Assembly: GCA_964016885.1 (NCBI GenBank)
Contig: OZ024757.1
Coordinates: forward strand, 42,966,001 to 43,030,000
Reading direction: 5' to 3'
Origin: Eledone cirrhosa
Taxonomy: Eukaryota
Length of the DNA stretch: 64,000 nt
This document shows, piece after piece, positions 1 to 64,000 of this stretch (its first letter is position 1; each line of letters begins with the position of its first letter). Made by a program: the position numbers and the translations under genes. The notes beneath the pieces were generated by a model. It was not told where the DNA came from. It ran no database searches and was given only the letters and a program-made list of their open reading frames with translations.

Positions 1-2
1 AG

Positions 3-14
3 TGCGCATGCGCC
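3..14. promoter_or_regulatory. NRF1-type motif TGCGCATGCGCC (first example; present in most monomers)
   Basis: 11/12 match to the NRF1 consensus YGCGCAYGCGCR, including the full palindromic core GCGCATGCGC. There is no functional evidence of binding. Confidence 0.45.
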
Positions 15-3000
15 AGAGCCGCCGAACCGTAGTGCGCATGCGCCAAGGCCGCCGGACCGTAGTGCGCATGGGCCAAAGCCGCCCGACCGTACTGCGCATG
101 CGCTAAGTCCGTAGTACCGTACTGCGCATGCTACAAGGCCGCAGTACCGTACTGCGCATGCGACAAGGCCGCAGTACCGTAGTGCGCATGCGCCAAGGCC
201 ACCGGACCGTAGTGCGCATGAGCCAAGGCCGCCGGACCGTACTGCGCATGCGCCAAGCCCGCCGGACCGTAGTGCGCATGCGCCAGAGCCGCCGAACCGT
301 GTTGCACATGCGCCAAGCCCGCCGGACCGTAGTGCGCATGCGCCAAGGCCGCCGGACCATACACCGCATGCGCCAAGGCCGCCGGACCATACTCCGCATG
401 CGCCAAGGCCGCCGGACCGTTGTGCGCATGCGCCAAGGCCGCCTGACGACTGCGCATGCGTCAAGGTCGCAATACCGAACTGCGCATGCGCTAAGGCCGG
501 CGGACCGTAGTGCGCATTCGCCAAGGCCGCCGGACCGTAGTGCGCATTCGCCAAGGCCGCCGGACCGTAGTGCGCATGCGCCAAGGCCGCCGGACCGTAG
601 TGCGCATGCGCCAAGGCCGCCTAACTGTACTGCGCATGCGTCAAGGTCGCAGTACCGAACTGCGCATGCGCTAAGGCCGCCGGACCGTACTGCGCATGCG
701 CCAAGGCCGCCGGACCGTAGTGCGCATGCGCCAAAGCCGCCGAACCGTAGTGCGCATGCGCCAAGGTCGCCGGACCTGACTGCGCATGCGCCGCGGCCGC
801 CGGACCGTACTGCGCATGCCCCAAGGCCGTCTGGTTGTACTGCGCATGCCCCAAGGCTGCCTGGTTGTACTGCTAATGCCCCAAGGCCGCCCGACCGTAG
901 TGCGCATGCGACAAGGCCGCCTGACCGTAGTGCGCATGCGCCAAGGCCGCCGGACCGTAGTGCGCATGCGTCAAGGTCGCAGTACCGAACTGCGCATGCG
1001 CTAAGGCCGCCGGACCGAACTGCGTATGGGCTAAGGCCGCCGGACCGTACTGCGCATGCGCCAAAGCCGCCGGACCGTAGTGCGCATGCGTCAAGGTCGC
1101 AGTACCGAACTGCGCATGCGCTAAGGCCGCCGGACCGTACTGCGCATGCGCCAAGGCCGCCGGACCGTACTGCGCATACCCCAAGGCCGCCTGGTTGTAC
1201 TGCGCATGCCCCAAGGCCGCCCGACCGTAGTGCGCATGCGCCAAAGCCGCCGAACCGTAGTGCGCATGCGCCAAGGCCGCCTAACTGTACTGCGCATGCG
1301 TCAAGGTCGCAGTACCGAACTGCGCATGCGCCAAGGCCGCCGGACCGTACTGCGAATGCGCCAAGGCCGCCGGACCGTAGTGCGCATGCGCCAAAGCCGC
1401 CGAACCGTAGTGCGCATGCGCCAAGGCCGCCGGACCATACTGCGCACGCATGCGCCGCGGCCGCAGGACCGTAGTGCGCATGCGCCAAGGCCGCCTGGTT
1501 GTACTGCGCATGCGCCAAGGCCGCCGGACCGTAGTGCGCATGCGCCAAGGCCGCCTGACTGTACTGCGCATGCGTCAAGGCCGCAGTACCGAACTGCGTA
1601 TGGGCTAAGGCCGCCGGACCGTACTGCGCATGCGCCAAGGCCGCCGGACCGTAGTGCGCATGCGCCAAGGCCGCCGGACCATACTGCGCATGCGCCAAGG
1701 CCGCCGGACCGTAGTGCGCATGCGCCAAGGCCGCCTAACTGTACTGCGCATGCGTCAAGGTCGCAGTACCGTACTGCGCATGCGCCAAGGCCGCCGAACC
1801 GTACTGCGCATGCGCCAAGGCCGCCGAACCGTACTGCGCATGCGCCAAGGCCGCCGAACCGTACTGCGCATGCGCCAAAGCCGCCGAACCGTAGTGCGCA
1901 TGCGCCAAAGCCGCTGGACCGTAGTGCGCATGCGCCAAGGCCACTGGACCGTACTGCGCATGTACCAAGGCCGCCGTCGTAGTGCGCATGCGCCAAGGCC
2001 GCCGGAACTTTGTGCGCATGCGCCAAGGCCGCCGGACCGTAGTGCGCATGCGCCAAGGCCGCCGGACCATAGTGCGCATGCGCCAAGGCCGCCGGAGCAT
2101 ACTGCGCATGCGCCAAGGCCACCGGACCGTAGTGCGCATGAGCCAAGGCCGCCGGACCGTAGTGCGCATGCGCCAAGGCCACCGGACCGTAGTGCGCATG
2201 AGCCAAGGCCGCCGGACCGTAGTGCGCATGCGCCAGAGCCGCCGAACCGTGGTGCACATGCGCCAAGCCCGTCGGACCGTAGTGCGCATGCGCCAAGCCC
2301 GCCGGACCGTAGTGCGCATGCGCCAAGGCCGCCTGACTGTACTGCGCATGCGTCAAGGTCCCAGTACCGAACTGCGCATGCGCTAAGGCCACCGGACCGT
2401 ACTGCGCATGCGCCAAGGCCGCCGGACCGTTGTGCGCATGCGCCAGAGCCGCCGAACCGTGGTGTGCATGCGCCAAGGCCGCCGGACCATACTGCGCATG
2501 CGCCAAAGCCGCCTGACTGTACTGCGCATGCGCCAAGGCCGCCTGACTGTACTGCGCATGCGACAAGGCCGCCGGACCGTAGTGCGCATGCGCCCAAGCC
2601 GCCGGACCATACTGCGCATGCGCCAAGGCCGCCGGACCGTAGTGCGCATGCGTCAAGGCCGCAGTACCGAACTGCGCATGCGCTAAGGCCGCAGTACCGA
2701 ACTGCGCATGCGCCAAGGCCGCCGGACCGTACTGCGCATGCGCCAAGGACGCCGGACCGTAGTGCGCATGCGCCAAAGACGCCGGACCGTAGTGCGCATG
2801 CGCCAAAGACGCCGAACAGTCGTGCCCATGCGCCAAGACCGCCGGACCGTACTGCGCATGCGCCAAGGCCGCTGAACCGTACTGCGCATGCCCCAAAGCC
2901 GCCGACCCGTAGTGCGCATGCACCAAGGCCACCGGACCGTACTGCGCATGCTCTAAGACCGTCGGACCGTAGTGCGCATGCCCCAAGGCCGTCGGACCGT

Positions 3001-4305
3001 AGTGCGCATGCGCCAAGGCCGCCAGACCGTAGTGCGCATACGCCAAGGCCGCCGAACCGTACTGCGCATGCGCCAAGGCCGCCGAACCGTACTGCGCATG
3101 CGCCAAGGCCGCCGAACCGTACTGCGCATGCGCCAAGGCCGCCGAACCGTACTGCGCATGCGCCAAGGCCGCCGAACCGTACTGCGCATGCGCCAAGGCC
3201 GCCGAACCGTACTGCGCATGCGCCAAGGCCACTGGACCGTACTGCGCATGTACCAAGGCCGCCGTCGTAGTGCGCATGCGCCAATGCCGCCGGACCTTTG
3301 TGCGCATGCGGTACGGTGGCCTTGGCGCATGCGCACTAAGGTCTAACGGCATTGGCGCATGCGCACTACGGTTCGGCGGCTTTGACGCACACGGACTACG
3401 TTCCGTCAGATTTGGCGCACGCACACTACGGTCCGGCGGTCTTGGCGCATGCGCACTACGGTCCGGCGACCATGCCGCATGCGCACTACGTTCCGGTGGC
3501 CTTGGCACATGCGCAGTACGGTCCGGCGGCTTTTGCGCATGCGCACTACGGTCTGGCAGCCTTGGCGCATGCGCACTACGGTCCAGCGGCCTTGGCGCAT
3601 GCGCACTACGTTCCGGTGGCCTTGGCGCATGCGCAGTACGGTCCAGTGGCCTTGGCGCATGCGTAGTAAGGTCCGGCGCCCTTAGCGCATGCGCAGTACG
3701 GTCCGGCAGCCTTGGCGCATGCGCACTAAGGGCCAGCGGTCTTTGCGCATGCGCACAACGGTCCGGTGGCCTTGGCGCATGCGCACTACGGTCCGGTGGC
3801 CTTGGCGCATGCGCACTACGGTCCGGCGGCCTTGGCGCATGCGCACTAAGGTCCGGCGGCTTTGGTGCATGCGCACTACGGTCTGGCATCATTGGCGCAT
3901 GCGCACTACGGTCCGGCGGCCTTGGCGCATGCGCAGTACGGCTGGCAACCTTGGCGTATGCGCACTACGGTCTGTCGGCCTTGGCGCATGCGCACTACTG
4001 TCCGGCGGCCTTGGCGTATGCGCAGTACGGTCCAGCGGCCTTGGCGCATGCGCAGTACGGTCCAGCGGCCTTGGCGCATGCGCACTACGGTTCGGCGGCC
4101 TTGGCGCATGCGCACTACGGTTCGGCGGCCTTGGCGCATGCGTACAACGGTCCGGCGGCCTTGGCGCATGCGCACTACGGTCTGGCAGCATTGGCGCAGG
4201 CGCACTAAGGTCCGGCGGCCTTGGCGCATGCGCACTACGGTCCGACGTCCTTGGCGCATGCGCACTACGGTCCGACGTCCTTGGCGCATGTGCAGTACGG
4301 TCCGG

Positions 4306-4904
4306 ATGACTTTTTGGCCATTTTAAGCCTTTATGTTGCCATATTTAGCCATTTTTGAGTCATTTTAGTAATTTATGATGCAGTTTTTACCATTTTAGAG
4401 CCATTTATAGTCATTTTAGACGTTTCAGTCGTGTTAGAGTCATTCTAGTCAATTATGATACGGTTTTAGCATTTTAGTCGTTGATGATGACGTTTTAGTC
4501 ATTTATGATGCAGTTTCAGCCATTCTGTTGTAATATGGCAACATAAATGATTAAATGGCCCTAAAATGGCTAAAACAGCATCATATTTGACAAAAATGAC
4601 TCGTAAATGAGTAAAACGGTATCGTAAATGACTAAAATAACTCTAGAAAGGCTACTACAGCATCATAAATGATTAAAATGACTCTAAAACGACTAAAACG
4701 TCTATGACAAAAATGGCTTTAATATAGCTTAAACTGCATCTTAAATGACTAAAACTACTAAAATGACTCCGAAATGGCTAAAAAAAAACATCATAAATGG
4801 CTAAAATGACACTAAAGTGGCTAAAACGGACTGTTAAATTGCTAAATTGTCTCTAAAATGGCTAAAACGTCTTCATAAATAAATAAAATGGCTAAAACGT
4901 GGGT
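4306..4904. repeat. Long AT-rich spacer, type A (inverted 41-bp minisatellite: T-rich half then A-rich half)
   Basis: GTCATTTTAG/GCCATTTTAG motifs run to ~4531, then CTAAAATGAC/CTAAAATGGC motifs follow. Contains the poly-A segment CTAAAAAAAAACATCATAAATGG. Confidence 0.95.
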
Positions 4905-7900
4905 GCCGGACCGTAGTGCGCATGCGCCAAGGCCGCCGGACCGTAATGCGCATGCGCCAAGGCCGCCGGACCGTAGTGCGCATGCGCCAAGACCGACTGA
5001 CTGTACTGCGCATGTGTCATCGTCGCAGTACCGCACTGCGCATGCGGTAAGGCCGCCGGACCGTACTGCGCATGCGCCAAGGCCGCCGGACCGTAGTGCG
5101 CAGGCGCCAAGGCCGCCGGACCGTAGTGCGCATGCACCAAGGCCGCCTGAGTGTACTGCGCATGCATCAAGGTCCCAGTACCGTACTGCGCATGCGCAAA
5201 GGCCGCCGGACAGTAGTGCGCATGCACCAGAGCCGCCGAACCGTAGTGCGCATGCGCCAAGGCCGTCGGACCGTAGTGCGCATGGGCCAAAGCCGCCCGA
5301 CCGTACTGCGCATGCGCTAAGTCCGTAGTACCGTACTGCGCATGCTACAAGGCCGCAGTACCGTACTGCGCATGCGACAAGGCCGCAGTACCGTAGTGCG
5401 CATGCGCCAAGGCCACCGGACCGTAGTGCGCATGAGCCAAGGCCGCCGGACCGTACTGCGCATGCGCCAAGCCCGCCGGACCGTAGTGCGCATGCGCCAA
5501 GGCCGCCTGACTGTACTGCGCATGCGCCAAGGCCGCCTGACTGTACTGCGCATGCGTCAAGGTCCCAGTACCGAACTGCGCATGCGCTAAGGCCACCGGA
5601 CCGTACTGCGCATGCGCCAAGGCCGCCGGACCGTAGTGCGCATGCGCCAGAGCCGCCGAACCCTGGTGTGCATGCGCCAAGGCCGCCGGACCATACTGCA
5701 CATGCGCCAAAGCCACCTGACTGTACTGCGCATGTGCCAAGGCCGCCTGACTGTACTGCGCATGCGACAAGGCCGCCAGACCGTAGTGCGCATGCGCCAA
5801 GGCCACCTAACTGTACTGCGCATGCGTCAAGGTCGCAGTACCGAACTGCGCATGCGCCAAGGCCGCCGGACCGTACTGCGCATGCGCCAAGGCCGCCGGA
5901 CCGTAGTGCGCATGCGCCAAAGCCGCCGAACCGTAGTGCGCATGCGCCAAGGCCGCCGGACCATACTGCGCACGCATGCGCGCGGCCGCAGGACCGTAGT
6001 GCGCATGCGCCAAGGCCGCCTGGTTGTACTGCGCATGCGCCAAGGCCGCCGGACCGTAGTGCGCATGCGCCAAGGCCGCCTGACTGTATTGCGCATGCGT
6101 CAAGGCCGCAGTACCGAACTGCGTATGGGCTAAGGCCGCCGGACCGTACTGCGCATGCGCCAAGGCCGCCGGACCGTAGTGCGCATGCGCCAAGGCCGCC
6201 GGACCGTAGTGCGCCTGCGCCAAGGCCGCCTAACTGTACTGCGCATGCGTTAAATCGCAGTACCGAACTGCGCATGCGCTAAGGCCGCCGGACCGTACTG
6301 CGCATGCGCCAAAGCCGCCGGACCGTAGTGCGCATGCGCCAAGTCCGCCTGGTTGTACTGCGCATGCGCCAAGGCCGCCGGACCGTAGTGCGCATGCGCC
6401 AAGGCCGCCTGACTGTACTGCGCATGCGTCAAGGCCGCAGTACCGAACTGCGTATGGGCTAAGGCCGCCGGACCGTACTGCGCATGCGCCAAGGCCGCCG
6501 GACCGTAGTGCGCATGCGCCAAGGCCGCCGGACCATACTGCGCATGCGCCAAGGCCGCCGGACCGTAGTGCGCATGCGCCAAGGCCGCCTAACTGTACTG
6601 CGCATGCGTCAAGGTCGCAGTACCGAACTGCACATGCGCTAAGGCCGCCGGACCGTACTGCGCATGCGCCAAGGCCGCCGTACCGTAGTGCGCATGCGCC
6701 AAAGCCGCCGAACCGTAGTGCGCATGCGCCAAGGCCGCCGGACCAGACTGCGCATGCGCCATGGCCGCCGGACCGTAGTGCGCATGCGCCAAGGCCGCCT
6801 GACCGTAGTGCGCATGCGCCAAGGCCGCCTGACTGTACTGCGCATGCGCCAAGGCCGCCGGACCGTAGTGCGCATGCGCCAAGGCCGCCTGACTGTACTG
6901 CGCATGCGGCAAGACCACAGTACCGAACTGCGCATGCGCTAAGGCCGCCGGACCGTAGTGCGCATGCGCCAAGGCCGCCGGACCGTAGTGTGCATGCGCC
7001 AAGACCGCCTAACTGTACTGCGCATGCGCCAAGGCCACCTAACTGTACTGCGCATGCGTCAAGGTCGCAGTACCGAACTGCGCATGCGCCAAGGCCGCCG
7101 GACCGTACTGCGAATGCGCCAAGGCCGCCGAACCGTAGTGCGCATGCGCCAAGGCCGCCTGACTGTACTGCGCATGCGTCAAGGCCGCAGTACCGAACTG
7201 CGCATGCGCTAAGGCCGCCGGACCGAACTGCGTATGGGCTAAGGCCGCCGGACCGTACTGCGCATGCGCCAAGGCCGCCGGACCGTAGTGCGCATGCGCC
7301 AAAGCCGCCGAACCGTAGTGCGCATGCGCCAAGGCCGCCTAACTGTACTGCGCATGCGTCAAGGTCGCAGTACCGAACTGCGCATGCGCCAAGGCCGCCG
7401 GACCGTACTGCGAATGCGCCAAGGCCGCCGGACCGTAGTGCGCATGCGCCAAAGCCGCCGAACCGTAGTGCGCATGCGCCAAGGCCGCCGGACCATACTG
7501 CGCACGCATGCGCCGCGGCCGCAGGGCCGTAGTGCGCATGCGCCAAGGCCGCCGGACCGTACTGCGCATGCGCCAAGGCCGCCGGACCGTAGTGCGCATG
7601 CGCCAAGGCCGCCGGACCATACTGCGCATGCGCCAAGGCCGCCAGACCGTAGTGCGCATGCGCCAAGGCCGCCTAACTGTACTGCGCATGCGCACTACGG
7701 TCCGGCGGCCTTGGCGCATGCGCTAAGGCCGCCGGACCGTACTGCACATGCGCCAATGCCGCCGGACCGTAGTGCGCATGCGCCAAAGCCGCCGGACCGT
7801 AGTGCGCATGCGCCAAGGCCGCCTGGTTGTACTGCGCATGCGCCAAGGCCGCCGGATCGTAGTGCGCATGCGCCAAGGCCGCCTGACTGCACTGCGCATG

Positions 7901-9556
7901 CGTCAAGGCCGCAGTACCGAACTGCGTATGGGCTAAGGCCGCCGGACCGTACTGCGCATGCGCCAAGGCCGCCGGACCGTAGTGCGCATGCGTCAAGGTC
8001 GCAGTACCGAACTGCGCATGCGCTAAGGCCGCCGGACCGTACTGCGCATGCGCCAAGGCCGCCGGACCGTAGTGCGCATGTGCCAAAGCCGCCGAACCGT
8101 AGTGCGCATGCGCCAAGGCCGCCTAACTGTACTGCGCATGCGTCAAGGTCGCAGTACCGAACTGCGCATGCGCCAAGGCCGCCGGACCGTACTGCGAATG
8201 CGCCAAAGCCGCCGAACCGTAGTGCGCATGCGCCAAGGCCGCCGGACCATACTGCGCACGCATGCCGCGGTCGCAGGACCGTAGTGCGCATGCGCCAAGG
8301 CCGCCTGGTTGTACTGCGCATGCGCCAAGGCCGCCGGACCGTAGTGCGCATGCGCCAAGGCCGCCTGACTGTACTGCGCATGCGTCAAGGCCGCAGTACC
8401 GAACTGCGTATGGGCTAAGGCCGCCGGACCGTACTGCGCATGCGCCAAGGCCGCCGGACCATACTGCGCATGCGCCAAGGCCGCCGGACCGTAGTGCGCA
8501 TGCGCCAAGGCCGCCTAACTGTACTGCGCATGCGTCAAGGTCGCAGTACCGAACTGCGCATGCGCTAAGGCCGCCGGACCGTACTGCGCATGCGCCAAGG
8601 CCGCGGGACCGTAGTGCGCATGCGCCAAAGCCGCCGGACCGTAGTGCGCATGCGCCAAGGCCGCCGGATCGTAGTGCGCATGCGCCAAGGCCGCCTGACT
8701 GTACTGCGCATGCGTCAAGGCCGCAGTACCGAACTGCGTATGGGCTAAGGCCGCCGGACCGTACTGCGCATGCGCCAAGACCGCCGGACCGTAGTGCGCA
8801 TGCGTCAAGGTCGCAGTACCGAACTGCGCTTGCGCTAAGGCCGCCGGACCGTACTGCGCATGCGCCAAGGCCGCCGGACCGTAGTGCTCATGCGCCAAAG
8901 CCGCCGAACCGTAGTGCGCATGCGCCTAGGCCGCCGGACCAGACTGCGCATGCGCCAAGGCCGCCGGACCGTAGTGCGCATGCGCCAAGGCCGCCGGACC
9001 GTAGTGCGCATGCGCCAAGGCCGCCTGACCGTAGTGCGCATGCGTCAAGGCCGCAGTACCGAACTGCGTATGGGCTAAGGCCGCCGGACCGTACTGCGCA
9101 TGCGCCAAGGCCGCCGGACCGTACTGCGCATGCGCCAAGGCCGCCGGACCATACTGCGCATGCGCCAAGGCCGCCGTACAGCGCACTACGGTCTGGCATC
9201 ATTGGCGCATGCGCACTACGGCCCGGCGGCCTTGGCGCATGCGCAGTACGGCCCGGCAACCTTGGCGTATGCGCACTACGGTCTGTCGGCCTTGGCGCAT
9301 GCGCACTACTGTCCGGCGGCCTTGGCGCATGCGCAGTACGGTCCAGCGGCCTTGACGCATGCGCACTACGGTTCGGCGGCCTTGGCGCATGCGTACAACG
9401 GTCCGGCGGCCTTGGCGCATGCGCACTACGGTCTGGCAGCATTGGCGCATGCGCACTACGGTCCGCCGTCCTTGGCGCATGCGCACTACGGTCCGCCGTC
9501 CTTGGCGCATGCGCACTACGGTCCGACGTCCTTGGCGCATGTGCAGTACGGTCCGG

Positions 9557-10135
9557 ATGACTTTTTAGCCATTTTAAGCCTTTATGTTGCCATATTTAGC
9601 CATTTTTGAGTAATTTTAGTAATTTATGATGCAGTTTTTACCATTTTAGAGCCATTTATAGTCATTTTAGACGTTTCAGTCGTGTTAGAGTCATTCTAGT
9701 CAATTATGATACGGTTTTAGCATTTTAGTCGTTGATGATGACGTTTTAGTCATTTATGATGCAGATTCAGCCATTCTGTTGTAATATGGCAACATAAATG
9801 ATTAAATGGCCCTAAAATGGCTTAAACAGCATCATATTTGACAAAAGTGACTCGTAAATGAGTAAAACGGTATCATAAATGACTAAAATAACTCTAGAAA
9901 GGCTACTACAGCATCATAAATGATTAAAATGACTCTAAAACGACTAAAACGTCTAAAATGACAAAACTGGCTTTAATATAGCTTAAACTGCATCTTAAAT
10001 GACTAAAACTACTAAAATGACTCCGAAATGGCTAAAATGACACTAAAGTGGCTAAAACGGACTGTTAAATTGCTAAATTGTCTCTAAAATGGCTAAAACG
10101 TCTTCATAAATAAATAAAATGGCTAAAACGTGGGT
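9557..10135. repeat. Long AT-rich spacer, type B
   Basis: Near-identical to 4306-4904 but lacks the ~22-bp poly-A segment and begins TTTTTAGCC rather than TTTTTGGCC. Confidence 0.95.
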
Positions 10136-13100
10136 GCCGGACCGTAGTGCGCATGCGCCAAGGCCGCCGGACCGTAATGCGCATGCGCCAAGGCCGCCGG
10201 ATCGTAGTGCGCATGCGCCAAGGCCGACTGACTGTACTGCGCATGTGTCATCGTCGCAGTACCGAACTGCGCATGCGGTAAGGCCGCCGGACCGTACTGC
10301 GCATGCGCCAAGGCCGCCGGACCGTAGTGCGCAGGCGCCAAGGCCGCCGGACCGTAGTGCGCATGCACCAAGGCCGCCTGAGTGTACTGCGCATGCATCA
10401 AAGTCCCAGTACCGTACTGCGCAAAGGCCGCCGGACAGTAGTGCGCATGCGCCAGAGCCGCCGAACCGTAGTGCGCATGCGCCAAGGCCGCCCGACCGTA
10501 GTGCGCATGGGCCAAAGCCGCCCGACCGTACTGCGCATGCGCTAAGTCCGTAGTACCGTACTGCGCATGCTACAAGGCCGCAGTACCGTACTGCGCATGC
10601 GACAAGGCCGCAGTACCGTAGTGCGCATGCGCCAAGGCCACCGGACCGTAGTGCGCATGAGCCAAGGCCGCCGGACCGTACTGCGCATGCGCCAAGCCCG
10701 CCGGACCGTAGTGCGCATGCGCCAGAGCCGCCGAACCGTGGTGCACATGCGCCAAGCCCGCCGGACCGTAGTGCGCATGCGCCAAGCCCGCCGGACCGTA
10801 GTGCGCATGCGCCAAGGCCGCCTGACTGTACTGCGCATGCGTCAAGGTCCCAGTACCGAACTGCTCATGCGCTAAGGCCACCGGACCGTACTGCGCATGC
10901 GCCAAGGCCGCCGGACCTTAGTGCGCATGCGCCAGAGCCGCCGAACCGTGGTGTGCATGCGCCAAGGCCGCCGGACCATACTGCGCATGCGCCAAAGCCG
11001 CCTGACTGTACTGCGCATGCGCCAAGGCCGCCTGACTGTACTGCGCATGCGACAAGGCCGCCGGACCGTTGTGCGCATGCGCCAAGGCCACCTAAATGTA
11101 CTGCGCATGGTCGCAGTACCGAACTGCGCATGCGCCAAGGCCGCCGGACCGTACTGCGAATGCGCCAAGGCCGCCGGACCGTAGTGCGCATGCGCCAAAG
11201 CCGCCGAACCGTAGTGCGCATGCGCCAAGGCCGCCGGACCATACTGCGCACGCATGCGCCGCGGCCGCAGGACCGTAGTGCGCATGCGCCAAGGCCGCCT
11301 GACTGTACTGCGCATGCGGCAAGACCACAGTACCGAACTGCGCATGCACTAAGGCCGCAGGACCGTAGTGCGCATGCGCCAAGGCCGCCTAACTGTACTG
11401 CGCATGCGTCAAGGTCGCAGTGCCGAACTGCGCATGCGCTAAGGCCGCCGGACCGTACTGCGCATGCGCCAAGGCCGCCGGACCGTAGTGCGCATGCGCC
11501 AAAGCCGCCGAACCGTAGTGCGCATGCGCCAAGGTCGCCGGACCTGACTGCGCATGCGCCGCGGCCGCCGGACCGTACTGCGCATGCCCCAAGGCCGCCT
11601 GGTTGTACTGCGCATGCCCCAAGGCCGCCTGGTTGTACTGCTCATGCCCCAAGGCCGCCCGACCGTAGTGCGCATGCGCCAAGGCCGCCCGACCGTAGTG
11701 CGCATGCGTCAAGGTCGCAGTACCGAATTGCGCATGCACTAAGGCCGCCGGACCGAACTGCGTATGGGCTAAGGCCGCCGGACCGTACTGCGCATGCGCC
11801 AAAGCCGCCGGACCGTAGTGCGCATGCGTCAAGGTCGCAGTACCGAACTGCGCATGCGCTAAGGCCGCCGGATCGTACTGCGCATGCGCCAAGGCCGCCG
11901 GACCGTACTGCGCATGCCCCAAGGCCGCCAGGTTGTACTGCGCATGCCCAAGGCCTTCCGACCGTAGTGCGCATGCGCCAAAGCCGCCGAACCGTAGTGC
12001 GCATGCGCCAAGGCCGCCTAACTGTACTGCGCATGCGTCAAGGTCGCAGTACCGAACTGCGCATGCGCCAAGGCCGCCGGACCGTACTGCGAATGCGCCA
12101 AGGCCGCCGGACCGTAGTGCGCATGCGCCGAACCGTAGTGCGCATGCGCCAAGGCCGCCGGACCATACTGCGCACGCATGCGCCGCGGCCGCAGGACCGT
12201 AGTGCGCATGCGCCAAGGCCGCCGGACCGTAGTGCGCATGCGCCAAGGCCGCCGGACCGTAGTGCGCATGCGCCAAGGCCGCCTGACTGTACTGCGCATG
12301 CGTCAAGGCCGCAGTACCGAACTGTGTATGGGCTAAGGCCGCCGGACCGTACTGCGCATGCGCCAAGGCCGCCGGACCGTAGTGCGCATGCGCCAAGGCC
12401 GCCGGACCATACTGCGCATGCGCCAAGGCCGCCGGACCGTAGTGCGCATGCACCAAGGCCGCCTGAGTGTACTGCGCATGCATCAAGGTCCCAGTACCGC
12501 ACTGCGCATGCGCAAAGGCCGCCGGACAGTAGTGCGCATGCGCCAGAGCCGCCGAACCGTAGTGCGCATGCGCCAAGGCCGCCGGACCGTAGTGCGCATG
12601 GGCCAAAGCCGCCCGACCGTACTGCGCATGCGCTAAGTCCGTAGTACCGTACTGCGCATGCTACAAGGCCGCAGTACCGTACTGCGCATGCGACAAGGCC
12701 GCAGTACCGTAGTGCGCATGCGCCAAGGCCACCGGACCGTAGTGCGCATGAGCCAAGGCCGCCGGACCGTACTGCGCATGCGCCAAGCCCGCCGGACCGT
12801 AGTGCGCATGCGCCAGAGCCGCCGAACCGTGGTGCACATGCGCCAAGCCCGCCGGACCGTAGTGCGCATGCGCCAAGGCCGCCGGACCATACACCGCATG
12901 CGCCAAGGCCGCCGGACCATACTCCGCATGCGCCAAGGCCGCCGGACCGTTGTGCGCATGCGCCAAGGCCGCCTGACGACTGCGCATGCGTCAAGGTCGC
13001 AATACCGAACTGCGCATGCGCTAAGGCCGGCGGACCGTAGTGCGCATTCGCCAAGGCCGCCGGACCGTAGTGCGCATTCGCCAAGGCCGCCGGACCGTAG

Positions 13101-16100: not shown

Positions 16101-16565
16101 GCGCACTACGGTCCGGCGGCCTTGGCGCATGCGCACTAAGGTCCGGCGGCTTTGGTGCATGCGCACTACGGTCTGGCATCATTGGCGCATGCGCACTACG
16201 GTCCGGCGGCCTTGGCGCATGCGCAGTACGGCTGGCAACCTTGGCGTATGCGCACTACGGTCTGTCGGCCTTGGCGCATGCGCACTACTGTCCGGCGGCC
16301 TTGGCGTATGCGCAGTACGGTCCAGCGGCCTTGGCGCATGCGCACTACGGTTCGGCGGCCTTGGCGCATGCGCACTACGGTTCGGCGGCCTTGGCACATG
16401 CGTACAACGGTCCGGCGGCCTTGGCGCATGCGCACTACGGTCTGGCAGCATTGGCGCAGGCGCACTAAGGTCTGGCGGCCTTGGCGCATGCGCACTACGG
16501 TCCGACGTCCTTGGCGCATGCGCACTACGGTCCGACGTCCTTGGCGCATGTGCAGTACGGTCCGG

Positions 16566-17167
16566 ATGACTTTTTGGCCATTTTAAGCCTTTATGTTGCC
16601 ATATTTAGCCATTTTTGAGTCATTTTAGTAATTTATGATGCAGTTTTTACCATTTTAGAGCCATTTATAGTCATTTTAGACGTTTCAGTCGTGTTAGAGT
16701 CATTCTAGTCAATTATGATACGGTTTTAGCATTTTAGTCGTTGATGATGACGTTTTAGTCATTTATGATGCAGTTTCAGCCATTCTGTTGTAATATGGCA
16801 ACATAAATGATTAAATGGCCCTAAAATGGCTAAAACAGCATCATATTTGACAAAAATGACTCGTAAATGAGTAAAACGGTATCGTAAATGACTAAAATAA
16901 CTCTAGAAAGGCTACTACAGCATCATAAATGATTAAAATGACTCTAAAACGACTAAAACGTCTAAAATGACAAAAATGGCTTTAATATAGCTTAAACTGC
17001 ATCTTAAATGACTAAAACTACTAAAATGACTCCGAAATGGCTAAAAAAAAACATCATAAATGGCTAAAATGACACTAAAGTGGCTAAAACGGACTGTTAA
17101 ATTGCTAAATTGTCTCAAAAATGGCTAAAACGTCTTCATAAATAAATAAAATGGCTAAAACGTGGGT
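16566..17167. repeat. Long AT-rich spacer, type A
   Basis: Copy of 4306-4904 at offset 12260. Confidence 0.95.
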
Positions 17168-21817: not shown

Positions 21818-22396
21818 ATGACTTTTTAGCCATTTTAAGCCTTTATGTTGCCATATTTAGCCATTTTTGAGTCATTTTAGTAATTTATGATGCAGTTTTT
21901 ACCATTTTAGAGCCATTTATAGTCATTTTAGACGTTTCAGTCGTGTTAGAGTCATTCTAGTCAATTATGATACGGTTTTAGCATTTTAGTCGTTGATGAT
22001 GACGTTTTAGTCATTTATGATGCAGATTCAGCCATTCTGTTGTAATATGGCAACATAAATGATTAAATGGCCCTAAAATGGCTAAAACAGCATCATATTT
22101 GACAAAAGTGACTCGTAAATGAGTAAAACGGTATCATAAATGACTAAAATAACTCTAGAAAGGCTACTACAGCATCATAAATGATTAAAATGACTCTAAA
22201 ACGACTAAAACGTCTAAAATGACAAAAATGGCTTTAATATAGCTTAAACTGCATCTTAAATGACTAAAACTACTAAAATGACTCCGAAATGGCTAAAATG
22301 ACACTAAAGTGGCTAAAACGGACTGTTAAATTGCTAAATTGTCTCTAAAATGGCTAAAACGTCTTCATAAATAAATAAAATGGCTAAAACGTGGGT
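21818..22396. repeat. Long AT-rich spacer, type B
   Basis: Copy of 9557-10135 at offset 12261. Confidence 0.95.
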
Positions 22397-50418: not shown

Positions 50419-50685
50419 CGTCATCAAAAAGGACTAACATGGCCGAAATGTCATCATGTATGTCTGAAATTACAACAAAATGGCTAAGACGGCATAATAA
50501 ATGACTAAAGTGACAATAAAATGCTAAAACCGTATCATAATTGACTAGAATGACTCTAACACGACTGAAACGTCTAAAATGACTATAAATGGCTCTAAAA
50601 TGGTTAAACTGCATCATAAATTTCTAAAATAACTCAAAATGGCTAAATATGGCAACATAAAGGCTTAAAATGGCTAAAAAGTCAT
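50419..50685 (-). repeat. AT-rich spacer, type C (267 bp)
   Basis: Ends AAGGCTTAAAATGGCTAAAAAGTCAT|CCGGA, the reverse complement of the long-spacer left junction. Confidence 0.92.
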
Positions 50686-53600: not shown

Positions 53601-53810
53601 GTGCATGCGCAGTACGGTACTGGGACCTTGATGCATGCGCAGTACAGTCAGGCGGCCTTGGCGCATGCGCATTACGGACCGGCGGCCTTGGCGCATGCGC
53701 AGTACGGTCCGGCGGCCTTAGCGCATGCGCAGTTCGGTACTGCGACCTTGACGCATGCGCAGTACAGTCAGGTGGCCTTGGCGCATGCGCAGTACGGTCC
53801 GGCGGCCTTG

Positions 53811-53865
53811 AAAATGGTTAAACTGCATCATAAATTACTAAAATAACTCAAAATGGCTAAATATG
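53811..53865 (-). repeat. Mini AT spacer (55 bp)
   Basis: Identical to 42117-42171. Confidence 0.92.
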
Positions 53866-56800
53866 GACTGTACTGCGCATGCGCCAAGGCCACCAGGACG
53901 TAGTGCGCATGCGCCAAGGCCATCGGACCGTAGTGCGCATGCGCCAAGTCTGCCAGACCGTAGTGCGCATGCGCCAAAGCCACCGGACCGTACTGCGCAT
54001 GTGCCAAGGCCACCGGAACGTAGTGCGCATGCGGCAAGGTCGCCGGACCGTAGTGCGCATGCGCCAAGACCGCCGGACCGTAGTGCGCGTGCGCCAAGGC
54101 CGCCAGACCGTAGTGCGCATGCGCCAAGGTCGCCGGGCCGTACTGCGCATGCGCCAAGGCCGCCGGGCTGTAGTGCGCATGCCCCAATGCTGCTAGACCG
54201 TAGTGCGCATGCACCAAAGCCACCGGACCGTAGTGCGCATGCGCCAAGGCTGCCGGACCGTAGTGCGCATGCACCAAGGCCGCCGGACCGTTGTGCGCAT
54301 GCGCAAAGAACGATGGCCATCTTAGTGAGCATGCGCCAAAGCCGCCGGAACGTACTGCGCATGCGCTAAGGCCGCCCGACCTTACTGCGCATGCGCCAAG
54401 GCCACTGGACAGTACTGCGCATGCGTCAAGGCCACCAGAACGTAGTGCGCATGCGCCAAGGCCGCCGTACCGTTGTGCGCATGCGCAAAGACAGCTGGCC
54501 CTTAGTGCGCATGCGCCATGGCCGCCGGACCGTAGTGCGCATGCGCCAAGGCTGCCAGACCGTAGTGCGCATGCGCCAAAGCCGCCGGACCGTACTGCGC
54601 ATGTGCCAAGGCCACCGGAACGTAGTGCGCATGCGGGAAGGTCGCCGGACCGTAGTGCGCATGCTCCAAGGCCGCCGAACCGCATGCGCACAAAGGTCCG
54701 GCGGCCTTGGCGCATGCGCAGTACGGTTCGGCGGCCTTGGCGCATGCGCACTACGGTCTGGCGGCCTTGGCACATGCGCACTACGGTCCGACGGCCTTGG
54801 GGCATGCGCAGTAAGATCCGGCGGTCTTGGAGCATGCGCACTACGGTCTGGCAGCCTTGGCGCATGCGCACTACGGTCCGGCGGCCTTGGCGCATGCGCA
54901 CTACGTTCCGGCGGCCTTGGCGCATGCGCACTACGTTCCGGTGGCCTTTGCGCATGCGCAGTACGGTCCAGCGGCCTTGGCGCATGCGCACAACGGTACG
55001 GCGGCCTTGGCGCATGCGCACTACGTTCCGGTGGCCGTGACGCATGCGCAGTACTGTCCAGTGGCCTTGGGGCATGCGCACTACAGTCCAGTGGCCTTGG
55101 CGCATGCGCAGTAAGGTCCGGCGGCCATGGCGCATGCGCACTAAGGGCCAGCTGTCTTTGCGCATGCGCACAACGGTACGGCGGCCTTGGCGCATGCGCA
55201 CTACGTTCTGGTGGCCTTGACGCATGCGCAGTACTGTCCAGTGGCCTTGGCGCATGCGCAGTAAGGTCGGGCGGCCTTAGCGCATGCGCAGTACGGTCTG
55301 GCGGCCTTGGCACATGCGCACTACGGTCCGACGGCTTTGGGGCATGCGCAGTACGATCCGGCGGTCTTGGTGCATGCGCAGTACCGTCCGGTGGCCTTGG
55401 CGCATGCGCACTACGGTGCAGCTGCTTTGGGGCATGCGCAGTACGGTTCGGCGGCCTTAGCGCATGCGCACTACGGTCCGGCGGGCTTGGCACATGCGCA
55501 GTATGGTCCGGCGACCTTGACGCAGGCGCACTACGGTTCGGCGGCTCTGGCGCATGCGCACTGCGGTCCGGCGGTCTTGGCGCATACGCAGTACGGTCCG
55601 GCGGCCTTAGCGCATGCGCAGTTCGGTACTGGGACCTTGACGCATGCGCAGTACAGTCAGGCGGCCTTGGCGCATGCGCACTACGGTCCGGCGGCCTTGG
55701 CGCATGCGCAGTATGGGCCGACGGCCTTGGCGCATGTGCACTATGTATCGGCGGCCTTGGCGCATGCGCACTACGGTTCGGCGGCTTTGGCGCATGCGCA
55801 CTACGATCCGGCGGCCTTGGCGCATGCGCACTACGGTCCGGCAGCCTTGGCGCATGCGCACTACGGTCATGTGGCCTTGGCGCATGCGCACTGCGGCCTT
55901 GTCGCATGCGCACTACGGTCCGGTGGCTTTGGCGCATGCGCACTACGGTCCGGCGTCCTTGGCGCATGTGCAGTACGGTCCGGTGGCCTTGGCGCATGCG
56001 CACTACGGTCCAGCTGCTTTGGCGCATGCGCAGTACGGTTCAGCGGCCTTAGCGCATGCGCACTACGGTCCGGCGGGCTTGGCGCATGCGCAGTATGGTC
56101 CGGCGACCTTGACGCATGCGCACTACGGTTCGGCGGCTCTGGCGCATGCGCACTGCGGTCCGGCGGCCTTGGCGCATGCGCACTACGTTCCGGTGGCCTT
56201 GGCGCATGCGCAGTACGCTCCAGTGGCCTTGGCGCATGCGCAGTAAGGTCCGGCGGCTTTGGCGCATGCGCACTATGGTCTGTCAGTTTTGGCGCATGCG
56301 CACTACGGTCCGGCTGCCTTCGTGGATGCGCACTACGTTCCGGCGGCCTTGCCGCATGCGCACTACGGTCCGGTGGCTTTGGCGCATGCGCACTACGGTC
56401 TGGCAGACTTGGCGCATGCGCACTACGGTCCGATGGCCTTGGCGCATGCGCACTACGTCCTGGTGGCCTTGGCGTATGCGCAGTACAGTCCAGTGGCCTT
56501 GGCGCATGCGCAGTGAGGTCCGGCGGCCTTAGCGCATGCGCAGTAAGGTCCGGCGGCCATGGCGTATGCGCACTAAGGGTCAGCGGTCTTTGCGCATGCG
56601 CACAACGGTCCGGCGGCCTTGGCGCATGCACACTACGGCCCGGCGGCCTTGGCGCCTGCGCACTACGGTCCGGCGGCTTTGGTGCATGCGCACTACGGTC
56701 TGGCAGCATTGGCGCATGCGCACTACGGTCTGGCAGACTTGGCGCATGCGCACTACGGTGCGATGGCCTTGGCGCGTGCGCACTACGTTCTGGTGGCCTT

Positions 56801-57317: not shown

Positions 57318-57584
57318 CGTCATCAAAAAGGACTAACATGGCCGAAATGTCATCATGTATGTCTGAAATTACAACAAAGTGGCTAAGACGGCATAATAAA
57401 TGACTAAAGTGACAATAAAATGCTAAAACCGTATCATAATTGACTAGAATGACTCTAACACGACTGAAACGTCTAAAATGACTATAAATGGCTCTAAAAT
57501 GGTTAAACTGCATCATAAATTACTAAAATAACTCAAAATGGCTAAATATGGCAACACAAAGGCTTAAAATGGCTAAAAAGTCAT
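57318..57584 (-). repeat. AT-rich spacer, type C (267 bp)
   Basis: Near-identical to 50419-50685. Confidence 0.92.
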
Positions 57585-60045
57585 CCGGACCGTACTGCAC
57601 ATGCGTCAAGAACGTTGGACCGTAGTGCGCATGCGCCAAGGCCTCCGAACCGTAGTGCGCATGCGCCAACGCCGCCGGACCGTAGTGCGCATGCGCCAAG
57701 GCCGCCGGACCGTAGTGCGCATGCGCCAAAGCCACCGGACCGTACTGCGCATGTGCCAAGGCCACCGGAACGTAGTGCGCATGCGGCAAGGTCGCCGGAC
57801 CGTAGTGCGCATGCGCCAAGACCGCCGGACCGTAGTGCGCGTGCGCCAAGGCCGCCAGACCGTAGTGCGCATGCGCCAAGGTCGCCGGGCCGTACTGCGC
57901 ATGCGCCAAGGCCGCCGGGCTGTAGTGCGCATGCTCCAATGCTGCTAGACCGTAGTGCGCATGCACCAAAGCCGCCGGACCGTAGTGCGCATGCGCCAAG
58001 GCCGCCGGACCGTAGTGCGCATGCACCAAGGCCGCCGGACCGTTGTGCGCATGCGCAAAGAACGATGGCCCTTAGAGCGCATGCGCCAAGGCCGCCGGAA
58101 CGTACTGCGCATGCGCTAAGGCCGCCGGACCTTACTGCGCATGCGTCAAGGCCACCGGAACGTAGTGCGCATGCGCCAAGGCCGCCGTACCATTGTGCGC
58201 ATGCGCAAAGACCACTGGCCCTTAGTGCGCATGCGCCATGGCCGCCGGACCTTACTGCGCATGCGCCAAGGCCGCCGGACCGTAGTGCGCATGCGCCAAT
58301 GCTGCCAGACCGTAGTGCGCATGCACCAAAGCTGCCGGACCGTAGTGCGCATGCGCCAAGGCCGCCGGACCGTTGTGCGCATGCGCCAAGGCCACTGGAC
58401 CGTAGTGCGCACGCGCCAAGGCCATCGGACCGTAGTGCGCATGCGCCAAGTCTGCCAGACCGTAGTGCGCATGCGCTAAAGCCACCGGACCGTACTGCGC
58501 ATGTGCCAAGGCCACCGGAACGTAGTGCGCATGCGGCAAGGTCGCCGGACCGTAGTGCGCATGCGCCAAGACCGCCGGACCGTAGTGCGCATGCGCCAAG
58601 TCTGCCAGACCGTAGTGCGCATGCGCCAAAGCCACCGGACCGTAGTGCGCATGCGGCAAGGCCGCCGGAACGTAGTGCGCATCCACGAAGGCAGCCGGAC
58701 CGTAGTGCGCATGCGCCAAGACTGACAGACCATAGTGCGCATGCGCCAAAGCCGCCGGACCTTACTGCGCATGCGCCAAGGCCACTGGAGCGTACTGCGC
58801 ATGCGCCAAGGCCACCGGAGCGTAGTGCGCACGCGCCAAGGCCGCCGGACCGCAGTGCGCATGCGCCAGAGCCGCCGAACCGTAGTGCGCATGCGTCAAG
58901 GTCGCCGGACCATACTGCGCATGCGCCAAGCCCGCCGGACCGTAGTGCGCATGCGCTAAGGCCGCTGAACCGTACTGCGCATGCGCCAAAGCAGCTGGAC
59001 CGTAGTGCGCATGCGCCAAGGCCACCGGACCGTACTGCACATGCGCCAAGGACGCCGGACCGTAGTGCGCATGCGCCAAAGCCACCGGACCGTAGTGCGC
59101 ATGCGACAAGGCCGCAGTACCGTAGTGCGCATGCGCCAAGGCCACATGACCGTAGTGCGCATGCGCCAAGGCTGCCGGACCGTAGTGCGCATGCGCCAAG
59201 GCCGCCGGACCGTAGTGCGCATGCGCCAAAGCCGCCGAACCGTAGTGCGCATGCGCCAAGGCCGCCGATACATAGTGCACATGCGCCAAGGCCGTCGGAC
59301 CATACTGCGCATGCGCCAAGGCCGCCGGACCGTAGTGCGCATGCGCCAAGGCCGCCTGACTGTACTGCGCATGCGTCAAGGTCCCAGTACCGAACTGCGC
59401 ATGCGCTAAGGCCGCCGGACCGTACTGCGCATGCGCCAAGGCCGCCGGACCGCAGTGCGCATGCGCCAGAGCTGCCGAACCGTAGTGCGCCTGCGTCAAG
59501 GTCGCCGGACCATACTGCGCATGTGCCAAGCCCGCCGGACTGTAGTGCGCATGCGCTAAGGCCGCCGAACCGTACTGCGCATGCGCCAAAGCAGCTGCAC
59601 CGTAGTGCGCATGCGCCAAGGCCACCGGACGGTACTGCGCATGCACCAAGACCGCCGGATCGTACTGCGCATGCCCCAAGGCCGTCGGACCGTAGTGCGC
59701 ACGTGCCAAAGCCGCCAGACCGTAGTGCGCATGCTCCAAGGCCGCCGGATCTTACTGCGCATGCCCCAAGGCCGTCGGACAGTAGTGCTTATGCGCACTA
59801 CGGTCTGGCGGCCTTGGCGCACGCGCACTACGGTCCGGCGGTCTTGGCGCATGCGCACTACGGTCCGGCGACCTTGCCGCATGCGCACTACGTTCCGGTG
59901 GCCTTGGCACATGCGCAGTACGGTTCGGTGGCTTTGGCGCATGCGCACTACGGTCTGGCAGACTTGGCGCATGCGCACTACGGTCCGATGGCCTTGGCGC
60001 ATGCGCACTACGTCCTGGTGGACTTGGCGCATGCGCAGTACAGTC

Positions 60046-60100
60046 CATATTTAGCCATTTTGAGTTATTTTAGTAATTTATGATGCAGTTTAACCATTTT
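60046..60100 (+). repeat. Mini AT spacer (55 bp), opposite orientation
   Basis: Reverse complement of 42117-42171. Confidence 0.92.
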
Positions 60101-61853
60101 CAAGGCCGCCGGACCGTACTGCGCATGCGCCAAGGCCACCTGACTGTACTGCGCATGCGTCAAGGTCGCAGTACCGAACTGCGCATGCGCTAAGGCCGCC
60201 GGACCGTACTGCGCATGCGCCAAGGCCGCCTGACTGTACTGCGCATGCGTCAAGGTCGCAGTACCGAACTACGCATGCGTTAAGGCCGCCGGACCGTACT
60301 GCGCATGTGCCAAGGCCGCCGGACCGTAGTGCGCATGCGCCAAAGCCGCCGAACCGTACTGCGCATGCGCCAAGGCCGCCGGACCGTAGTGCGCATGCGC
60401 CAAGACCGACTGACTGTACTGCGCATGCGTCAAGGTCCCAGTACCGAACTGCGCATGCGCTAAGGCCGCCGGACCGTACTGCGCATGCGCCAAGGCCGCC
60501 GGACCGCAGTGCGCATGCGCCAGAGCCGCCGAACCGTAGTGCGCCTGCGTCAAGGTCGCCGGACCATACTGCGCATGCGCCAAGCCCTCCGGACCGTAGT
60601 GCGCATGCGCTAAGGCCGCCGAACCGTACTGCGCATGCGCCAAAGCAGCTGGACCGTAGTGCGCATGCGCCAAGGCCACGGGACGGTACTGCGCATGATC
60701 CAAGACCGCCGGATCGTACTGCGCATGCCCCAAGGCCGTCGGACAGTAGTGCGCATGTGCCAAGGCCGCCAGACCGTAGTGCGCATGCTCCAAGACCGCC
60801 GGATCTTACTGCGCATGCCCCAAGGCCGTCGGACCGTAGTGCGCATGTGCCAAGGCCGCCAGACCGTAGTGCGCATGCGCCAAGGCCGCCGAACCGTACT
60901 GCGCATGCGCCAAGGCTGTCGGACCTTTGTGCGCATGCGGTTCGGCGGCCTTGGCGCATGCGCAATACGGTCCGGCGACCTTCCCGCATGCGCACTACGT
61001 TCCGGTGGCCTTGGCACATGCGCAGTACGGTCCGGCGGCTTTGGCGCATGCGCACTACGGTCTGGCAGCCTTGGCGCATGCGCACTACGGTCCGGCGGCC
61101 TTGGCGCATGCGCACTACGTTCCGGCGGCCTTGGCGCATGCGCAGTACGGTCAAGCGGCCTTGGCGCATGCGCACAAAGGTACGGCGGCCTTGGCGCATG
61201 CGCACTACGTTCCGGTGGCCTTGACGCATGCGCAGTACTGTCCAGTGGCCGTGGGGCATGCGCACTACAGTCCAGTGGCCTTGGCGCATGCGCAGTAAGG
61301 TCCGGCGGCCTTAGCGCATGCGCAGTAAGGTCCGGCGGCCATGGCGCATGCGCACTAAGGGCCAGCGGTCTTTGCGCATGCGCACAACGGTACGGCGGCC
61401 TTGGCGCATGCGCACTACGTTCCGGTGGCCTTGACGCATGCGCAGTACTGTCCAGTGGCCTTGGCGCATGCGCAGTAAGGTCCGGCGGCCTTAGCGCATG
61501 CGCAGTACGTTCCGGCGGCCTTGGCGCATGCGCACTAAGGGCCATCGTTCTTTGCGCATGCGCACAACGGTCCGGCGGCCTTGGTGCATGCGCACTACGG
61601 TCCGGCAGCCTTGGCGCATGCGCACTACGGTCCGGCGGCTTTGGTGCATGCGCACTACGGTCTAGCAGCATTGGGGCATGCGCACTACAGCCCGGCGGCC
61701 TTGGCGCATGCGCAGTACGGCCCGGCGACCTTGGCGCATGCGCACTACGGTCTGGCGGCCTTGGCGCACGCGCACCACGGTCTGGCGGTCTTGGCGCATG
61801 CGCACCACGGTCCGGTGGCCTTGGCGCATGCGCAGTACGGTCCGGCGGCCTTG

Positions 61854-61908
61854 AAAATGGTTAAACTGCATCATAAATTACTAAAATAACTCAAAATGGC
61901 TAAATATG
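61854..61908 (-). repeat. Mini AT spacer (55 bp)
   Basis: Identical to 42117-42171. Confidence 0.92.
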
Positions 61909-64000
61909 GACTGTACTGCGCATGCGCCAAGTCCACCAGGACGTAGTGCGCATGCGCCAAGGCCATCGGACCGTAGTGCGCATGCGCCAAGTCTGCCAGA
62001 CCGTAGTGCGCATGCGCCAAAGCCACCGAACCGTACTGCGCATGTGCCAAGGCCACCGGAACGTAGTGCGCATGCGGCAAGGTCGCCGGACCGTAGTGCG
62101 CATGCGCCAAGACCGCCGGACCGTAGTGCGCGTGCGCCAAGGCCGCCAGACCGTAGTGCGCATAAGCACTACTGTCCGACGGCCTTGGGGCATGCGCAGT
62201 AAGATCCGGCGGCCTTGGAGCATGCGCACTACGGTCTGGCGGCTTTGGCACGTGCGCACTACGGTCCGACGGCCTTGGGGCATGCGCAGTACGATCCGGC
62301 GGTCTTGGTGCATGCGCAGTACCGTCCGGTGGCCTTGGCGCATGCGCACTACGGTGCAGCTGCTTTGGCGCATGCGCAGTACGGTTCGGCGGCCTTAGCG
62401 CATGCGCACTACAGTCCGGCGGGCTTGGCACATGCGCAGTATGGTCCGGCGACCTTGACGCAGGCGCACTACGGTTCGGCAGCTCTGGCGCATGCGCACT
62501 GCGGTCCGGCGGCCTTGGCGCATGCGCAGTACGGTCCGGCGGCCTTAGCGCATGCGCAGTTCGGTACTGGGACCTTGACGCATGCGCAGTACAGTCAGGC
62601 GGCCTTGGCGCATGCGCACTACGGTCCGGCGGCCTTGGCGCATGCGCAGTATGGTCCGACGGCCTTGGCGCATGTGCACTATGTATCGGCGGCCTTGGCG
62701 CATGCGCACTACGGTTCGGCGGCTTTGGCGCATGCGCACTACGGTCCGGCGGCCTTGGCGCATGCGCACTACGGTCCGGCAGCCTTGGCGCATGCGCACT
62801 ACGGTCATGTGGCCTTGGCGCATGCGCACTACGGTACTGCGGCCTTGTCGCATGCGCACTACGGTCCGGTGGCTTTGGCGCATGCGCACTACGGTCCGGC
62901 GTCCTTGGCGCATGTGCAGTACGGTCCGGTGGCCTTGGCGCATGCGCACTACGGTCCAGCTGCTTTGGCGCATGCGCAGTACGGTTCAGCGGCCTTAGCG
63001 CATGCGCACTACGGTCCGGCGGGCTTGGCGCATGCGCAGTATGGTCCGGCGACCTTGACGCATGCGCACTACGGTTCGGCGGCTCTGGCGCATGCGCACT
63101 GCGGTCCGGCGGCCTTGGCGCGTGCGCACTACGCTCCGGTGGCCTTGGCGCATGCGCAGTACGCTCCAGTGGCCTTGGCGCATGCGCAGTAAGGTCCGGC
63201 GGCTTTGGCGCATGCGCACTATGGTCTGTCAGTCTTGGCGCATGCGCACTACGGTCCGGCTGCCTTCGTGGATGCGCACTACGTTCCGGCGGCCTTGCCG
63301 CATGCGCACTACGGTCCGGTGGCTTTGGCGCATGCGCACTACGGTCTGGCAGACTTGGCGCATGCGCACTACGGTCCGGCGGTCTTGGCGCATGCGCACT
63401 ACGGTCCGGCGACCTTGCCGCATGCGCACTACGTTCCGGTGGCCTTGGCACATGCGCAGTACGGTCCGGTGGCTTTAGCGCATGCGCACTACGGTCTGGC
63501 AGACTTGGCGCATGCGCACTACGGTCCGATGGCCTTGGCGCGTGCGCACTACGGTCCGGTGGCCTTGGCACATGCGCAGTACGGTCCGGTGGCTTTGGCG
63601 CATGCGCACTACGGTCTGGCAGACTTGGCGCATGCGCACTACGGTCCGATGGCCTTGGCGCATGCGCACTACGTCCTGCTGGCCTTGGCGCCTGCACAAT
63701 ACAGTCCAGTGGCCTTGGCGCATGCGCAGTAAGGCCCGGCGGCCTTAGCGCATGCGCAGTAAGGTCCGGCGGCCATGGCGCATGCGCACTAAGGGCCAGC
63801 GGTCTTTGCGCATGCGCACAATGGTACGGCAACCTTGGCGCATGCGCACTACGTTCCGGTGGCCTTGACGCATGCGCAGTACTGTCCAGTGGCCTTGGCG
63901 CATGCGCAGTAAGGTACGGCGGCCTTAGCGCATGCGCAGTACGTTCCGGCGGCCTTGGCGCATGCGCACTAAGGGCCATCGTTCTTTACGCACCGTACTG

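Follow-up and report, generated by a model that had tools for sequence, protein, structure and literature searches.

The 64,000-nucleotide stretch of Eledone cirrhosa DNA analysed here (contig OZ024757.1, positions 42,966,001 to 43,030,000; hereafter the window) is filled nearly throughout by a GC-rich 30-bp tandem repeat (30-mer), the orientation of which changes many times, and AT-rich DNA made of a second, 41-bp repeat (41-mer) is found at one of the two kinds of orientation change. This layout is probably that of a 30-mer satellite carrying copies and deletion remnants of a single AT-rich cassette of 41-bp repeats, the apparent rule by which reverse-to-forward (R>F) junctions, and no forward-to-reverse (F>R) junctions, bear AT-rich DNA reflecting inheritance and not a mechanism that reads polarity. 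An earlier note on this DNA had interpreted the same layout as a rule-governed foldback satellite amplified as a composite kilobase-scale hairpin; of that interpretation as a whole, the few ancestral events and the modular inverted arms stand, but the rule, the hairpin unit and the foldback origin are not supported.

Monomer calling over the whole window returned 1,945 30-mers (1,285 forward and 660 reverse), which display a mean identity of 89.9% to their consensus and a spacing of exactly 30 bp for 1,853 same-strand neighbours. At the kilobase scale they form 34 blocks, 17 forward and 17 reverse in alternation, ranging from 90 bp to 5.5 kb in length. All 34 flips of orientation counted previously between these blocks were found, but two single-monomer inversions of 30 bp had been overlooked; these add two F>R and two spacer-free R>F junctions, and the total is therefore 38. 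The positions found for the 17 block-scale F>R junctions agree with those given earlier to about 5 bases, and no foreign DNA is present in them; AT-rich DNA occurs at none of the 19 F>R junctions obtained when the single-monomer flips are counted. Sixteen of the block-scale R>F junctions are inside the window, while the 17th, in the final ~15 bases, is identical in sequence to that at 43,909. The presence of AT-rich 41-mer DNA at 13 of these 17 junctions is borne out (13 of 19 once the single-monomer flips are counted), as is its absence from uniformly oriented blocks, a scan for low GC content returning exactly 13 regions, every one of which is at an R>F junction.

The 13 AT-rich inserts comprise six long cassettes of 591–621 bp, two inserts of 274 bp, one of 237 bp and four of 78 bp (Table 1). 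One core is common to all of them, and the shorter types form a nested deletion series from 274 to 237 to 78 bp. The long cassette is a dyad of degenerate 41-mers with arms about 68–74% alike, for which the modular inverted arms proposed previously are an accurate description. Because both arms align end-anchored at one common 41-mer/30-mer boundary, a single ancestral boundary can be inferred. Two-armed dyads with the same centre account for six of the 13 inserts and the remaining seven are one-armed; over about 230 bp, the 274-bp type is an almost exact reverse complement of the long cassette's left arm. Two features show that the centre of the cassette is not the end of an element: it is a join inside a repeat unit, with an overlap of 3 bases, and in the 274-bp type the left arm continues into further 41-mer. 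Although the arms are otherwise about 70% alike, the first 16 bases of the right arm (about 4532–4547) match, perfectly and in inverted orientation, a stretch of the left arm 200 bp away (about 4333–4348), and the centre may have been created by a local template switch.

The spacer-free junctions are also few in origin, with the 19 F>R junctions falling into five lineages and three registers and the six spacer-free R>F junctions (two of them from single-monomer flips) into four lineages. One register is common to 13 of the 17 block-scale F>R junctions. The main lineage, J1, recurs in both orientations with private substitutions, and 12 of the 17 occurrences of a rare monomer variant are found at the 12 J1 junctions. 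The junction at 29,983 is likely, on the sequence of its flanks, to be a second, independent join, and a breakpoint hotspot at its CG overlap is possible. In J3, the only kilobase-scale flip located exactly at the centre of the monomer palindrome, two substitutions break the symmetry of the centre. The suggestion that many junctions are copies of a few ancestral events is thus upheld, both by the core shared among inserts and by the five F>R lineages.

This descent has consequences for the junction rule. An R>F junction keeps its polarity through duplication and reverse-complementation, and the two kinds of junction must alternate. Naive junction counts, as tabulated in the earlier note, give a Fisher p of 5.1e-6; since polarity is invariant under duplication and inversion and the junctions are copies, the association drops when lineages are counted instead, to p = 1.0 with the AT-rich inserts as one lineage, 0.24 with three and 0.085 with the most generous split. 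A neutral simulation that started from a single cassette and a single spacer-free flip was run 500 times per setting with illegitimate deletion at 0, 2 and 5%, only runs that retained five or more cassettes being scored and the others dropped. Of the runs scored, 283 of 283, 238 of 245 and 196 of 211, respectively, had every cassette at an R>F junction, and about 2–3 spacer-free R>F exceptions appeared when deletions were allowed. A rule beyond descent therefore finds no support, as polarity is unchanged by copying or inversion and the neutral model yields the same table.

Copying has been pervasive: for 98.2% of the window, a copy of at least 150 bp exists at another place within it, with a mismatch of 1.1%, and the copied segments are of varied length, both direct and inverted, with about 99% identity. 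Two domains can be distinguished. The left domain contains direct copies with a higher-order period of ~12.3 kb (9107–12331 is 99.84% identical to 21368–24592), and inverted copy amounts to 179 bp only. In the right domain, 13,250 of the 26,553 bp of copied DNA are inverted and 1,062 bp are traced to the left domain. The boundary near 35,700–35,850 thus parts two modes of copying, one direct and the other half inverted, with little recent exchange between them.

The arms that flank the F>R junctions are not mirror copies of each other. Mirrored monomers at the 17 block-scale junctions differ at 4.4–6.7 of 30 positions, compared with 5.16 for random pairs, and the best of 31 mirror offsets reaches 3.0 differences, at one junction. 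With the mirror distance at background, a fold-back origin of each junction, in which mirror arms would arise as in events of the breakage–fusion–bridge type, was rejected. As the arms are not mirror copies, no fixed hairpin unit was amplified, and the composite kilobase hairpin is further contradicted by the wide span of block lengths and by copied segments of varied extent in both orientations; a fixed composite unit of any kind was rejected on the same variation. The mirror distances also bear on the explanation of the flips as artefacts of chimeric (fold-back) reads or misassembly, which is highly improbable: chimeras give mirror arms, the same junction is found in both orientations with private substitutions, and short-read contigs contain the cassette with its centre, its boundary being covered by raw reads from a different study. 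That explanation can draw on one inverted pair of 1,744 bp with 100% identity, which is either an inverted duplication of very recent date or a local duplicate introduced by assembly, and on a read comparison that covered the cassette region only.

Table 1. Coordinates of junctions, AT-rich inserts and domains in the window.
Feature	Position	Strand	Other copies	Remarks
Main F>R lineage J1	35835–35860	both orientations	12 copies in all: about 3305, 15625, 27313, 35846, 40532, 42785, 45814, 47848, 52646, 54685, 56923, 60935	Register 7 bp short of perfect palindrome, CG overlap
F>R junction at 29,983	29970–29990			J1 register, other flanks on both sides, CG overlap
F>R lineage J2	9172–9192		near 21442	Register 11 bp short of perfect palindrome
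F>R lineage J3	59783–59800		near 62162 (inverted)	Switch exactly at monomer palindrome centre
Single-monomer inversion (30 bp)	7689–7718	-	20012–20041	Between two palindromic cores
Long AT-rich cassette (copy 1 of 6)	4297–4914		9548–10145, 16557–17177, 21809–22406, 28245–28864, 30348–30938	41-mer arms T-rich (left) and A-rich (right); centre near 4535
One-armed AT-rich insert, 274 bp	50421–50694	+	57320–57593	
AT-rich insert, 237 bp	38674–38910	+		274-bp type with deletion at right boundary; 522-bp flank match to 274-bp type
AT-rich insert, 78 bp	42100–42177	+	53794–53871, 61837–61914; 60040–60117 (inverted)	About 56 bp AT-rich; derived from 237-bp type
Spacer-free R>F junction	43897–43922		63983	
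Further spacer-free R>F junctions	about 47025 and 56826			
Left domain	1–35843			Forward blocks 1.1–5.5 kb, reverse blocks 0.36–1 kb, six long AT-rich cassettes
Right domain	35844–64000			Blocks 0.09–2.8 kb in both orientations, one-armed AT-rich inserts
Recent inverted pair	58397–60140		61814–63557 (reverse complement)	1,744 bp, 100% identical

Among words sampled from 3000–5600, a share of 0.42–0.51 is present in three sequencing runs under one organism label, of which X2 and X3 are from the same sample, which may have been the source of the assembly itself, and X5 is from another study. Reads and contigs were compared with the stretch 4237–4974, which holds a cassette and hence an R>F junction. 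Contigs of X2 and X3 tile 4261–4933 with 0–2 differences per piece; one X3 contig crosses the cassette centre without a difference (4487–4617), and the left GC/AT boundary is crossed by one contig in each of the two runs (4261–4355). About 800 raw X5 reads cover the GC/AT boundary near 4310. No single contig or read record spans the whole of 4237–4974. Taken together, the short-read data confirm the AT-rich cassette. In X5, 572 and 304 reads start at the single sites 4257 and 4954, inside the 30-mer flanks, which are likely to be restriction sites of a reduced-representation library. Contig depth reaches a summed 150,000–210,000 for the 30-mer and 10,000–30,000 at general 41-mer-like positions, mostly with other letters, against about 100–230 at cassette-specific positions; this contrast suggests relatively few cassettes and a larger 41-mer family elsewhere in the genome, depth being a rough guide and not a copy number. 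A run under another organism label (X1, share of words 0.05) contains 30-mer-like, 41-mer-like and boundary contigs at depths of 2–5, which include the GC/AT boundary and 88 bp that match the left arm of the cassette exactly, too thin a record to date the cassette relative to a species split.

A distinct question is how the 41-mer/30-mer boundary came about. The array could derive from a foldback (Mutator-like) element or a MITE (miniature inverted-repeat transposable element) with 41-mer and 30-mer arm domains, the 30-mer having expanded and the ends having been lost; this is unlikely, and since it concerns the origin of the boundary it is compatible with neutral copying thereafter. The old inverted arms of the long cassette share one boundary, as modular arms would, and 41-mer-like DNA appears to be abundant elsewhere in the genome. 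Foldbacks are, moreover, known seeds of satellites, as described for Tetris (PMC4079207) and Rehavkus (PMC12581902), which, along with FB and TU, likewise have inverted arms of modular tandem repeats, and a review derives Xstir from a MITE. On the other hand, foldbacks such as Tetris have flanking and middle domains and target-site duplications of 8–10 bp, none of which was found in the window. Only 30-mer or 41-mer DNA is present in the 64 kb, with no defined termini next to a flanking domain, no middle domain and no non-repetitive domain of any kind, and the cassette centre is no terminus, its left arm continuing as 41-mer in the 274-bp type. The direct repeats that flank inserts are 5–7-bp, repeat-derived matches around four of the 13, none convincing as a target-site duplication, in a search of low power inside repeats, the window offering no unique flanks. 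The birth of the satellite from a foldback or MITE, as the earlier note envisaged, is thus not supported: no terminus, convincing target-site duplication or transposase was seen in the window. The analogy to FB and TU holds for the modular inverted arms, but is more distant than that to the macro-dyad satellites of Tribolium.

Indeed, the layout has already been described in flour beetles, and by analogy the window closely parallels a Tribolium-type macro-dyad array of two satellites, at a smaller scale and with different repeats. In T. freemani, the major satellite TfSat01 is organized in inverted subarrays with asymmetric arms, joined without extraneous sequence through six conserved types of spacer-free inversion, and separated by intercalary cassettes of a second, degenerate satellite, TfSat03, with a dyad of their own and a conserved centre (PMC12581902). 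The window likewise contains inverted subarrays at the kilobase scale, few types of spacer-free inversion and dyad cassettes with a shared centre (six of the 13 inserts). The two differ in their monomers (166 bp in T. freemani and a GC-rich 30 bp in the window), so that no sequence kinship is expected, and in scale, with a median array of 11.8 kb and cassettes about 4 kb long compared with blocks of 0.1–5.5 kb and cassettes of 0.06–0.6 kb, over half of which are one-armed; furthermore, the T. freemani arrays number thousands of copies on most chromosomes, with support from fluorescence in situ hybridization, whereas the present description concerns one window (PMC12581902). TmSat1 and TmSat2 of T. 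madens share the layout of T. freemani, and its conservation may reflect the mode in which the segments spread; both arose from one ~110-bp unit, in contrast to the repeats of the window, which are unlike in length and base composition and have no evident kinship (PMC13081366). Chio1 and Chio2 of Chionographis japonica, with 23- and 28-bp monomers that contain internal dyads, are also found in mixed forward and reverse arrays, but these are CENH3-bound and megabase-sized, and the available text mentions no second satellite at junctions (PMC10264360). Many inversion breakpoints, over 200, have been reported for human HSat3B5 and beta satellite, with no polarity-linked second repeat mentioned in the text available (10.1101/2021.07.12.452052).

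Every monomer carries a conserved 10-bp palindrome. Across 441 distinct indel-free monomers, the G/C sites of this core vary at 4.7% compared with 15.8% for other G/C sites, a contrast to be read with the core having been picked after the data were seen and the monomers not being independent; low variability of the palindromic core, at positions 3–11 of the 30-mer, is observed across the window. The palindrome equals the NRF1 site as printed in PMC8096230, and protein binding or intrastrand palindrome correction could explain its conservation. The switch falls exactly on the palindrome centre in J3 and at each end of the single-monomer flip; for this, a rough binomial test (at least two of eight events in this register) gives p = 0.027, a modest and post hoc value. 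That short inverted repeats seed palindromic rearrangements is supported by a review of palindromes (PMC7999016).

Such conservation is among the observations consistent with selection having kept the macro-dyads and junctions as (peri)centromeric structural elements, that is, as formers of hairpins or loops or as protein sites, an idea proposed, but not shown, for Tribolium and, by analogy, rather improbable here. The architecture resembles that of the putative centromeric satellites of T. freemani and T. madens, Chionographis centromeres have dyad-bearing monomers of 23 and 28 bp in mixed orientation (PMC10264360), and the 64-kb window is free of transposon insertions. Single-strand folding predictions are favourable for the junctions as well (J1, -63.1 kcal/mol, z -11.7; plain block, -34.3 kcal/mol, z -2.7), but any inverted repeat trivially gives such scores, which were not used as evidence for structure in vivo. 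Furthermore, nested deletions reduce the cassette to about 56 bp, and it is missing at six of the 19 R>F junctions, the flanks of the junctions diverge like the remainder of the array, and the cassette-specific depth suggests, as a rough guide, few copies compared with the more than 1,500 cassettes of T. freemani. A bolder version, to which we assign an equally low likelihood, is that of a self-inverting satellite, in which the core palindrome, identical to the printed NRF1 site, would be bound by protein, maintained by selection and able to seed flips, the window then representing (peri)centromeric macro-dyad chromatin of the Tribolium kind built convergently in another lineage, its stems GC-rich and every other turn occupied by an AT-rich cassette.

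The window is non-coding satellite DNA, probably from a eukaryote, to which RAD-seq libraries under the same organism label as the three runs also point. The 168 stop-free frames of at least 150 amino acids, both strands combined, are present because the 30-bp unit is poor in stops; a coding repeat was rejected, as the long frames stem from this property and the variation lacks, by inspection, a codon-position rhythm. The first 12,000 of the 64,000 bases gave no Rfam matches. The exact 30-mer pattern had no match in metagenome and viral contigs, and the exact 41-mer pattern none in metagenome contigs, no eukaryotic assemblies being included in either case. Main-text literature searches returned no paper containing any of four exact motifs and, for the palindrome, none that by its title concerned such a satellite; on that basis both repeats appear to be undescribed, although supplementary satellite catalogues could hold the monomers. 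Over the whole window the ratio of observed to expected CpG is 1.21 and CpG transitions are not raised (0.076 versus 0.075), which together suggest little decay through methylation and hence an array little methylated in the germ line.

Under the interpretation favoured here, inheritance from one cassette, a 41-mer array and a 30-mer array would have been joined once, and a long-ago inverted duplication of that boundary would have produced the two-armed cassette, with 30-mer blocks running outward from it. Central deletions stabilise palindromes; rare new flips may have arisen at the 10-bp palindrome or next to it, by template switching or during the repair of breaks, and many of them would have lost a small central stretch. 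In-register recombination would then duplicate or delete DNA between blocks of the same orientation and invert it between blocks of opposite orientation, while occasional out-of-register deletions would trim or bypass the cassette. The most likely role of such an array is that of filler in heterochromatin, possibly pericentromeric, and no function would attach to the rule.

Several points weigh against this interpretation. The core is about three times less variable than other G/C sites, which neutral copying does not explain, and because the seed of the simulation has polarity built in, the runs show the sufficiency of descent and not an absence of selection. An apparently independent recurrence of the J1 register at the 29,983 junction suggests a preferred breakpoint and not pure chance, and 38 flips per 64 kb is a high density that could reflect retention. 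The origin of the ancestral boundary is left unexplained and could lie in a transposon arm. Finally, the evidence comes from a single window, with the read comparison confined to the cassette region.

The window provides a small and fully traceable case in which copying alone can yield both a striking junction rule and apparently conserved inversion sites, and copying is, as a consequence, the null model that structural claims for the macro-dyads of Tribolium must beat. The young flips caught at the monomer's own palindrome point to a source of strand switches in satellites that can be put to the test. Were the array centromeric, macro-dyad centromeres would extend to a lineage other than flour beetles.

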